Source: Nitrososphaerota archaeon (GTDB lineage: Archaea; Thermoproteota; Nitrososphaeria; Nitrososphaerales; Nitrosopumilaceae). Taken from it: a stretch of DNA of 32,000 nucleotides. The stretch spans positions 21,222-53,221 of the forward strand of contig JAGWGU010000002.1 in NCBI GenBank assembly GCA_028867275.1, read 5' to 3'. Within the stretch, counting starts at the first letter, position 1. Every line of letters starts with the position of its first letter. A program made the translations under genes and the position numbers. The notes below the pieces were generated by a model. It was not told the DNA's origin. It ran no database searches and saw only the letters and a list, made by a program, of their open reading frames with translations. Shown here one piece after another: positions 12,460-13,924 of this stretch.

Positions 12460-12660
12460 GTGACTCCAAAAGGAAATAGGAATCATTACAATGTAAAGTT
12501 TCTCAAGGAATATGGATTCTCAATCAAAAAGATTCAAAGTTGTCCCAAAGAATTGTTCTGACCATTTCTTACCAGCATCAAGATTGAATCACTTTACAAT
12601 CCATCTGATCGGGATTGTCAGGATCAGATGTTATAAGATAATGGTATTGATTGTCTGGCT
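12460..12660 (+). pseudogene. cas1: decayed second Cas1 (casposase-like) N-terminal remnant
   Basis: From GTG at 12460: VTPKGNRNHYNVKFLKEYGFSIKK against MTLLGKKNHYNVKLLRGYGVSITLK of the Cas1 at 17043 (14 of the first 24 positions identical by eye). After an A5 run the match continues in another frame (KDSKLSQR vs KDNKISLR). Weaker matches follow (GLSGSDVIR vs GRGYVSTDAIK) with several stops and frameshifts. The extent beyond about 12660 is unclear. Confidence 0.5.
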
Positions 12661-13202
12661 ATGTCTTTAATCTTAGACATGTTGAACCATAATGCATTTC
12701 TTACTTGCTTTTTACGGCTTAGCATAAACAGCGAGAAAGCTCCATCAAAATAAGACATGTTTGAGAGCGGATTTTGTTGGAATATGTGGAATGTAGTTAA
12801 TAGAATTGTCGTACTGGCCATTGCAAGAACCACGAAATAGTTAATGGTGTATTTCTTGGTCTCTGGGTTGTGAAAAGATGAGAGCAATTTCATAAAATAC
12901 TGTATTCTAATCCGGCATTTAAGACCCGTCTGCCAAATTTGGAAATATACCGTCTATTGCCTAATTGTTCAACAATTTAGAATAGGTTAGTTTGGTCTAC
13001 CATATCACCTTTAGATTTCAATTTTACCTCACACCTCATGGAATTTGTTGAACACAATACTGCGCCTGATATGTATACGTAGCCTTGTACCGTACACGTA
13101 CCGTACATGTGTGCCTAAATTAGTATCTAAAAATGGGAAATATTGTTTATTGTTATCTGATATTAGAAAACTTTATCTATCAATCTGGAGATTTATGGAT
13201 CC

Positions 13203-13613
13203 ATGATTGATGAAACAAATCCATGGTATAGTCCGGAAATAGTTTCAAATTCAAAAATGATACGTACCGGTTCTGAATCAACAAGAACTCGGGATGAAAA
13301 AATTCTGACAAATCAAAACTTTGGATATAGTGTAAGTGATACCGTCGTACAAAAAGCCATGGTTACTGTAGCAATAGAAAAAGTTCTTTTAGACATTGGC
13401 AAGCCGATATATGATAAAGTATGGAGGATTCTATATACGGAATATCATTGTTATCTACCGGATTGTTATGACCATCCAGAATACTTGGCCGATGCACTAC
13501 GCCAAACATATGGAATTTCATACAAGTCTATAATTAAAAATATCGAACGTGAACTCATAGAGTTCTCATATAAACACAAAATTCAAAACTTTCTAACTGT
13601 AATAGTCCAATAA
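13203..13613 (+). CDS. hypothetical protein (136 aa)
   Basis: ORF track; ATG start; no motif I can name. A GTACCGTACA tandem repeat lies upstream. Confidence 0.5.
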   Translation: MIDETNPWYSPEIVSNSKMIRTGSESTRTRDEKILTNQNFGYSVSDTVVQKAMVTVAIEKVLLDIGKPIYDKVWRILYTEYHCYLPDCYDHPEYLADALRQTYGISYKSIIKNIERELIEFSYKHKIQNFLTVIVQ

Positions 13614-13707
13614 TTCTCTGTTAGCATCAAAATCTTGTCCTTGTCTTGCGCGTGATCATTCCATCTAATTTTGCCATATGAGTCATTTTAGATTATTTCA
13701 AATATGA

Positions 13708-13845
13708 TCAGTTTTCCCAATACCATTTTTGTACAAATCCACTATGTTTTGTTTTGTGTACTTTGGTATGCCTCTCAAAATGCACACGATCATTGAATAT
13801 CATGCCACATTCTTTACACTTGAATTCTTTTTCCTTACTATCCAC
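13708..13845 (-). CDS. 45-aa single classic C2H2 zinc-finger protein (below cutoff)
   Basis: Hand translation (GTG start) VDSKEKEFKCKECGMIFNDRVHFERHTKVHKTKHSGFVQKWYWEN. It fits C-x2-C-x3-F-x5-F-x2-H-x3-H exactly. The start is about 20 nt inside terminal repeat X. Confidence 0.6.
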   Translation of the reverse strand: MDSKEKEFKCKECGMIFNDRVHFERHTKVHKTKHSGFVQKWYWEN

Positions 13846-13864
13846 GTTATACCCATGTCTTAAT

Positions 13865-13924
13865 CGATCTTAACTTTTACGATACTAGCACATTCCCACG
13901 AACAAATCGGTGGTAAACCATTTT
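13865..13924 (+). repeat. terminal-type repeat copy X (same orientation as copy Z)
   Basis: The last 13 nt, GGTAAACCATTTT, are identical to 18022-18034. The upstream ~45 nt are roughly two-thirds identical by eye (TTTTACGA, ACAT, CCC blocks). Confidence 0.6.

Follow-up and report, generated by a model that had tools for sequence, protein, structure and literature searches.

A dead casposase gene start, probably within an inverted casposon remnant, beside aEF-2 in a Nitrosotalea archaeon

Candidatus (Ca.) Nitrosotalea devanaterra has a described family-1 casposon at its ef-2 gene (PMC6563490; 6.4 kb, here G010/L039), tandem family-1 casposons, NitNF5-C1 and NitNF5-C2, occupy ef-2 of Ca. Nitrosopumilus adriaticus (PMC6563490), and a casposon remnant lies beside a casposon in Methanolobus psychrophilus (PMC6563490, PMC4046053). 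Work on the N. koreensis family-1 casposase has established its target, the register of a 13-bp duplication, a TTT leader and a loose specificity for element ends (PMC8464041). Here, the aEF-2 locus of a Nitrososphaerota archaeon is examined within a stretch of 32,000 nucleotides (nt), hereafter the window (G000:C10:21222-53221, from an assembly of 1.70 Mb in 73 contigs), where a short relic of a second casposase (cas1) gene at 12460-12568 probably marks a casposon remnant, element A, inverted beside a decayed casposon, element B. The initial annotation had placed the host in Nitrosopumilus, which gave the right family and the wrong genus: the host is a Nitrosotalea, as are the named organisms with related aEF-2 genes (Ca. 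N. devanaterra, G010, and Ca. N. bavarica, G151).

The Ca. N. devanaterra casposon has in common with the window the genus, the target (the final aEF-2 codons, the 15-nt tail being identical) and the type of terminus (AAATGGTTTACCCC...); its Cas1 is 85% identical to the read-through product of B, and it is followed, as in the window, by a second, decayed element with a 5' stub of cas1. That casposon is nevertheless intact (Cas1 of 362 amino acids (aa); protein-primed polymerase, pPolB, of 634 aa) with both target copies direct, whereas both members in the window are dead, A is of the other casposase lineage and lies reversed, and the target copy between the two elements is flipped. The NitNF5-C1/C2 and M. 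psychrophilus arrays likewise present one site that is reused repeatedly whilst older members decay, but they run head to tail with direct target duplications, unlike the window; PMC4046053, PMC6563490 and PMC8464041 contain direct duplications only, no search having been aimed at reports of inverted copies. In Ca. Nitrosopumilus koreensis AR1 (NitAR1-C1), the 13-bp duplication also ends in ...GAGT (ATTGATAAAGAGT in AR1 versus GTCGACAGCGAGT here), a T-run 'leader' is recreated by the distal end of each element, and end specificity is similarly loose; the genus is different, however, and the target differs at 6 of 13 positions. With tandem and decayed casposons at aEF-2 already known, the flipped target copy shared by A and B is the only unusual feature of the locus.

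The array is set out by three copies of the aEF-2 tail, with the cas1 stub between t2 and t3:

18035-18049, minus strand: t1, the real aEF-2 tail and casposon target, comprising the last four codons and the stop
13925-13939, plus strand: t2, a perfect copy of the tail (13-bp duplication at 13925-13937 plus AA), in the opposite orientation to the real tail
11724-11738, minus strand: t3, a degenerate tail copy and target site, GTCTATGGCGAGTAA, with 3 mismatches, oriented as the real tail and adjoining the outer end of A
12460-12568, plus strand: 5' stub of cas1, with 23 codons in frame, a deletion of 4-5 nt and then a further ~12 codons that can be recognised in the next frame

The aEF-2 gene is intact (18035-20227, minus strand, 730 aa) and undisrupted by insertion at its 3' end, the array beginning at its stop codon (18035). 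In the direction of aEF-2, t1 (18049-18035) is followed by B (13940-18034), with its terminus T1 first, by inverted t2 (13939-13925), by A (11739-13924), lying backwards from terminus X to terminus L_A, and by t3 (11738-11724). The cas1 gene of B reads away from aEF-2. Much of what the initial annotation had proposed for this arrangement stands: the two cas1 genes face each other across the tail copy at 13925-13939, the stub is part of a second, heavily eroded Cas1 element in opposite orientation and points at terminus X, and a single tail copy lies between A and B. Taking the comparisons below together, we put at roughly 85% the probability that the stub is the dead start of a family-1 casposase gene inside A, an inverted neighbour of B in a two-member aEF-2 array.

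The peptide first quoted from the GTG start at 12460 on the plus strand was read again as given, and matches the N-terminus of B Cas1 at 13 of 24 positions (14 with GTG taken as M). The match also continues out of frame after an A-run (KDSK...), as had been claimed, with the next-frame reading and a DNA alignment in agreement; that alignment, which takes in six cas1 5' ends, that of B and those of five further genomes, extends from the start codon to ~12568 with 77-79% identity over 103-113 nt, and locates the cause of the frameshift in a deletion of 4-5 nt after 12530. A hidden Markov model (HMM) of Cas1, made from three intact genes and the B read-through, gave one match in six frames of 11000-13950 with filters off and E values up to 100 (12457-12528, model positions 7-30), and against all stop-free pieces in six frames of the 1.70-Mb genome it found the three pieces of B and the stub (E 5.2e-6, 27.6 bits) only, the next-best match having E = 1. 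In tblastn searches of 3500-13939 the B read-through Cas1 has a single match, the stub (22 residues, E 3.7e-4), to which the intact G058 Cas1 is the closer match, at 78% over 23 residues (E 1.5e-6). Weaker patches had been said to follow, but neither the unfiltered HMM search of 11000-13950 nor tblastn found further pieces of cas1 beyond 12457-12528. Given the unique HMM match and a DNA alignment that passes through the frameshift, the stub is real and 36 codons long: it is the genuine leftover start of a family-1 casposase gene, and it is dead.

The stub is 78% identical in amino acids, and 77-79% in nucleotides, to casposases of complete, pPolB-bearing casposons, versus 59% in amino acids to B Cas1. 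It lies nearer to the casposases of G058 and G175, both from elements with a PF03175 protein-primed polymerase, than to B Cas1, which is ~53% identical to that group. Because it is closer to the pPolB-casposon casposases than to B, the stub represents a second casposase lineage, distinct from the cas1 of B, and no copy of that gene. The two elements had been called related; both bear Cas1, but the stub comes from a different lineage than B Cas1. The two lineages are too distant at DNA level for blastn of element B against 9000-13939 to find the stub, and protein and HMM searches are needed. That the 24-residue match is due to chance, to a common N-terminal motif or to a local duplicate of the 5' end of B cas1 is hardly credible: the in-frame stretch is admittedly short (23 codons) and the 74-aa stop-free piece that holds the stub has zero matches in an index of 5.8 billion proteins, but the HMM match is unique genome-wide, DNA homology runs on past the frameshift to a total of 109 nt, the start of the stub lies 721 nt inside a bona fide terminus (the usual distance in related elements being 600-900 nt and the minimum ~100 nt), and the stub is nearer to the other lineage (78%) than to B (59%), with blastn of B against the region to the left not finding it. 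A Cys-rich mini-ORF (open reading frame) of ~40 aa (12331-12453, minus strand, MPIKCADC...) begins 6 nt upstream of the stub on the opposite strand, and its DNA has matches of 76-80% in many genomes of the genus.

Around the stub, A is made up, in order, of a proximal terminus, small Cys-rich ORFs with 42-nt repeats, the stub itself, cargo and terminus X:

11739-11828, plus strand: L_A, the cas1-proximal terminus of A, which starts AAAAAGGCGATCCCC and holds a copy of the ATGATTTGTTGG repeat
12569-12580, no strand: deletion or recombination junction, where cas1 homology ends and a cargo module common to G165, L059, L061 and L062 begins
12624-12893, minus strand: cargo ORF of 89 aa with no Pfam match
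13203-13613, plus strand: cargo ORF of 136 aa, a conserved member of a multi-copy family
13655-13924, minus strand: X module, with a C2H2 zinc-finger ORF of 45 aa at 13708-13845 (PF00096, E 4.9e-6) and terminus X at 13855-13924

The initial annotation had seen neither an outer terminus nor another tail copy left of 12460, yet the terminus is present at 11739 and the copy (t3) at 11724-11738. On the minus strand t3 is preceded by GGGGATCGCCTTTTT, in the same shape as every junction between element end and tail in related arrays, and the whole 1.7-Mb genome has only three tail-like sites with at most 3 mismatches and flanking T-run and A-run, namely the real tail, the copy at 13925 and t3. L_A aligns with the terminus that follows the internal tail in G196 (64/90 identity, z score 13.4) and with termini directly after the aEF-2 stop in G184 (z 9.3) and G165 (z 7.2), whilst X, the cas1-distal end, matches T1 at 52/70 positions (z 14). 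Each end of A opens with AAAA.GG....CC.C and has homologues among the termini of other elements. That A is a single unit is judged from its collinearity with G165 and from element 2 of G196, in which the same unequal pairing of ends is found. Repeats of 42 nt with a ATGATTTGTTGG core lie at 11771-11808, 12039-12080 and 12307-12346; they also form the inner part of cas1-proximal termini in G165, G166, G184 and G196, and so belong to casposon-derived elements.

From ~12575 to 13649, A is collinear, at 87% identity, with part of the element beside aEF-2 in G165, and the cargo module likewise lines up with the metagenome contigs L059, L061 and L062 (80-87%); between stub and cargo module G165 (L034) has an extra 1.77 kb (2130-3898) that is missing in A. 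The remainder of cas1 is missing through deletion, with this conserved module in its place, and has not decayed where it stood. The left element had been described as mostly eroded, and its cas1 is indeed nearly gone, but both of its ends are present. Nor is the 89-aa ORF spurious, as had been suspected: it is stop-free and full-length in four other sequences, L059 (87%), L061/L062 (81%) and L034 (74%), and in a paralogue on contig C71 of its own genome (61%), with a ratio of non-synonymous to synonymous substitution (dN/dS) of 0.33 against G165. The 136-aa ORF has a dN/dS of 0.24 against G165, homologues in six metagenome contigs and paralogues in its own genome. In G165 (L034 2016-2663) a frame of 215 aa fuses the first 94 residues of Cas1 in frame to a domain of the 136-aa cargo family, that domain being 33% identical to the product of window 13203-13613.

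No pPolB was matched in A by tblastn with three casposon pPolBs, the only matches in the window being a 136-codon remnant in B, and tblastn across 3500-13939 found no relics of the 302-aa and 439-aa proteins that B encodes (best E 0.35), although such relics had been thought worth looking for. Of cas1, only the frameshifted codons 1-36 are kept. A is thus best read as the internally deleted, polymerase-less remnant of a family-1 casposon and no functional member of that family. It keeps both termini, and it has intact relatives in other genomes (L035, L042). Searches of the whole assembly found no cas1 beyond that of B and the stub, no intact casposase gene and no PF03175/pPolB gene; a weak PF03175 match on contig C30 is an ordinary family-B polymerase (PF00136) and was discarded as a casposon pPolB. 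In an assembly that lacks both an intact casposase gene and a pPolB gene, it is likely that nothing in A is active now.

Element B carries a 302-aa gene, cas1 in three frame pieces and a 439-aa gene, together with the following:

15984-17043, minus strand: cas1 pseudogene of B, in three frame pieces
17965-18034, minus strand: terminus T1, the cas1-proximal end of B
13940-14009, plus strand: terminus Y, the cas1-distal end of B, matching T1 at 51/70 positions (z 14)
14229-14637, plus strand: pPolB remnant of the C-terminal 136 codons with one frameshift, found by tblastn with the N. devanaterra casposon pPolB

At the amino-acid level this remnant is 82% identical to the ef-2 casposon pPolB of N. 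devanaterra (tblastn E 8e-35 and 7e-30), a protein that is in turn 48% identical to a PF03175 pPolB. On account of the pPolB C-terminus, B is a decayed casposon, related to that of N. devanaterra, rather than a primary 'Cas1-solo' element. The 439-aa protein was considered as a truncated pPolB and rejected, since it has no similarity to one.

The feature that sets the array apart is the orientation of its inner target. The target copies that flank A, at 11724-11738 and 13925-13939, lie in opposite orientation. Copies t1 and t2 are identical at 15/15 positions, or 18/18 when the three A's after each 15-nt tail are included, whilst t3 agrees with t2 at 10/13 and differs from t1 at 3/13; the 13-bp register, which ends in GAGT and is preceded by a T-run, agrees with that of the N. 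koreensis casposase (PMC8464041). The cargo module of A runs in the direction of aEF-2 in G165 and in contig L062, and in the window it runs opposite to aEF-2 and to the far host flank alike. The block of X, tail and Y is ordered internally just as at ordinary junctions in N. devanaterra (87.5% over 120 nt), where its counterpart is the junction between two elements, and in N. bavarica (79% over 340 nt). Casposase integration duplicates its target in direct orientation (PMC4046053, PMC8464041), and the inverted t2 is consequently a secondary change that requires a later inversion. It had been proposed that the two elements share one target copy: there are indeed two elements with one copy between them, but that copy is inverted relative to the real tail, and sharing by integration does not suffice.

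Conserved host sequence resumes only at ~7761, and a distal tail copy was looked for at this host-flank boundary without success. In G035 (L053), homologues of window 6350-7761 and 11152-11490 sit ~100 nt apart, and nothing in that locus matches window 7762-11150, which holds a TFIIB gene and small ORFs, so that the stretch between host flank and array is also variable.

Inverted tails are found at other aEF-2 loci too. Tails of opposite orientation occur on one contig in G166, G195 and G197, a flipped degenerate copy in G199 and another flipped copy in L090:

G197 (L044), 7263-7277: inverted internal target copy
G166 (L037), 7441-7455: inverted internal target copy
G195 (L038), 5363-5377 and 6118-6132: inverted internal target copies
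L090: inverted internal target copy
G199:C5 (L046), 11889-11901 and 13627-13639: inverted pair of identical degenerate copies, GTTGACAGCAAAT

The G199 pair brackets one stub-bearing element of 1.7 kb, and both of its copies carry the same three derived changes. Direct tail arrays are present in G010, G155, G164, G175, G185, G196, G198 and G199; the tally of tail orientation also took in G190 and G192, with one tail each. These two are among the genomes marked unpublished (G077, G092, G189-G192) that entered the tallies; none of the specific claims depends on them. In a first sample of loci the cas1 gene of every first element read away from aEF-2, and a fixed insertion orientation was entertained, but this was dropped after a wider survey, where full-length casposons stand beside aEF-2 in both orientations.

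The state of cas1 was counted from Cas1 HMM matches in 23 loci, the window and 22 from other genomes, which together hold 5 full or near-full cas1 genes, 23 5' stubs and 2 3' relics. The stubs span 15-150 codons and end between model positions 22 and 157, no internal-only fragment of cas1 was seen in these loci, and a wider look at 51 aEF-2 loci gave the same picture. The stub in the window is therefore the commonest state of cas1 in aEF-2 arrays, and Nitrosotalea elements at aEF-2 are mostly small and polymerase-less, keeping only the start of the gene. Possible reasons for the excess of stubs are the geometry of deletion, a detection bias from the very conserved N-terminus, or deletions mediated by the casposase. 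In one metagenome contig (L062 2357-2371, Ga0070681_10000432) a tail copy without mismatches joins cas1 directly at codon ~172, where an intact cas1 reads TTTCTGGTAAACGAGT, with partial likeness to leader and target; TTTCTGGTAAACGAGT could be a target-like site within cas1 that was used for a deletion. An intact casposon of 8.8 kb (G175:C147, L042, 1559-10432; Cas1 of 362 aa, pPolB of 604 aa, and an AbiV-like HEPN gene) lies away from aEF-2 between direct ATCGACAGCAAGTAA copies, with cas1 at its far end, and this site looks like a decoy or relocated target.

As for how the locus came about, repeated site-specific casposase integration at the 13-bp aEF-2 target would have built the array, cas1 after codon 36 would then have been lost by internal deletion or recombination, and a later inversion would have produced the flipped target copy. 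Intramolecular attack by the casposase is ranked first as the source of that inversion, as a tentative choice. In the 'inversion/deletion' events of Tn10/IS10 inside ends, a pair of neighbouring inner ends attacks a target close by on the same DNA molecule, the short stretch that separated these ends is lost, and an inverted element ends up between inverted target duplications. The likeness would be one of topology only, the enzyme here presumably being a Cas1-family integrase. By analogy, neighbouring inner ends of adjacent elements would attack a target or tail copy within the same array, with the outcome that one element is lost as a circle or is inverted between inverted target copies, the old middle copy being lost. 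Attack on t1 would leave t1 and the flipped copy as fresh, identical duplicates, in keeping with their observed 18/18 identity, and attack on a distal copy would give the pattern of G199. A further idea, in which end-repair of a linear copy lengthened the terminal repeat of B until it took in the tail, was rejected, because re-insertion would add tail copies and none are seen.

Ranked close behind, and also less likely than not, is an account that covers the same data, namely that A instead inserted reversed in the ordinary way, that B came later at the aEF-2 tail, and that only the 13-bp copy between them then flipped. The flip would exploit the quasi-palindromic junction of end, target and end (T-run, 13 bp, A-run, related termini), through template switching at a hairpin or cruciform or through recombination of the arms. 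Reverse insertion has precedents, in that full-length casposons lie both ways beside aEF-2 (L090, L092, L118 versus L063, L135, L138) and L042 has a reversed cas1 between direct duplications; the identity of t2 to t1 is moreover what would be expected of B's own fresh duplication, with t3 older, and the neighbours of flipped copies in G197 and G199 keep the usual orientation, which a local flip fits better. However, the X and Y arms match at only ~8 of their first 13 positions and would form a weak stem, two independent peculiarities (reverse insertion and flip) are needed, and the ordinary internal order of the X, tail and Y block suggests that it moved whole.

In two other routes to the inversion a single event would yield the direct outer copies and the inverted inner copy, from an ancestral order with A beside aEF-2 in its usual orientation, as in G165, but the difference between t1 and t3 at 3/13 positions speaks against them. 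Homologous recombination between the terminal repeats of neighbouring elements is the less improbable of these and still unlikely, for the outermost ends, L_A and T1, share just ~15 nt, too little for homologous recombination. The other, very unlikely route has a composite of A, target and B cut at its outermost ends and re-inserted reversed into the aEF-2 tail. The family-1 casposase does take very diverse ends and insert fragments of ~4 kb in vitro (PMC8464041), yet the inverted copy in G199 is identical to the copy across one element, where the composite predicts an outer pair, and the model is disfavoured.

That the mirror arrangement is an assembly artefact, a misjoin through the short shared tail and the terminal repeats, is similarly improbable. 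The assembly is fragmented into 73 contigs, the aEF-2 locus is hypervariable between strains and the repeats are short and partly palindromic, but inverted tails recur in at least five other independent assemblies, some of them highly contiguous (a 476-kb contig in G199; 8 contigs in G195), the exact shared repeats are just 18-29 nt long, and the stub, its terminus and t3 are independent of the orientation of any join.

Several observations weigh against the account favoured here, of A as one inverted element turned over by intramolecular attack. Firstly, L_A and X are poor inverted repeats beyond ~15 nt. Secondly, the match of t2 to t1 (15/15) but not to t3 (10/13) points to t1 and t2, more than to t2 and t3, as the fresh pair. 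Thirdly, in G197 and G199 the elements next to a flipped copy lie the usual way round, a state for which flipping the 13-bp centre alone suffices, with no need of transposition. Lastly, the junctions come from the contigs of a 73-contig draft.

The main yield, as found, is a corrected annotation of ~2.2 kb at a known aEF-2 hot spot. Beyond this, an inverted target duplication is something that integration cannot produce, and it recurs in several independent genomes; it is possible, though doubtful, that the inverted 13-bp targets of this array, and those in five or more further Nitrosopumilaceae assemblies, are footprints of intramolecular casposase reactions on resident ends. If they are, Cas1-family integrases would reshuffle and prune their own arrays in vivo, which could account for the excess of cas1 5' stubs (23 versus 5 full-length genes in 23 loci) and for the tail fused to cas1 codon 172. 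Inversions made by the casposase would be natural evidence of a Cas1 integrase acting on ends that are already integrated, and would bear on the remodelling of casposon arrays and, by analogy, of early CRISPR-like arrays.

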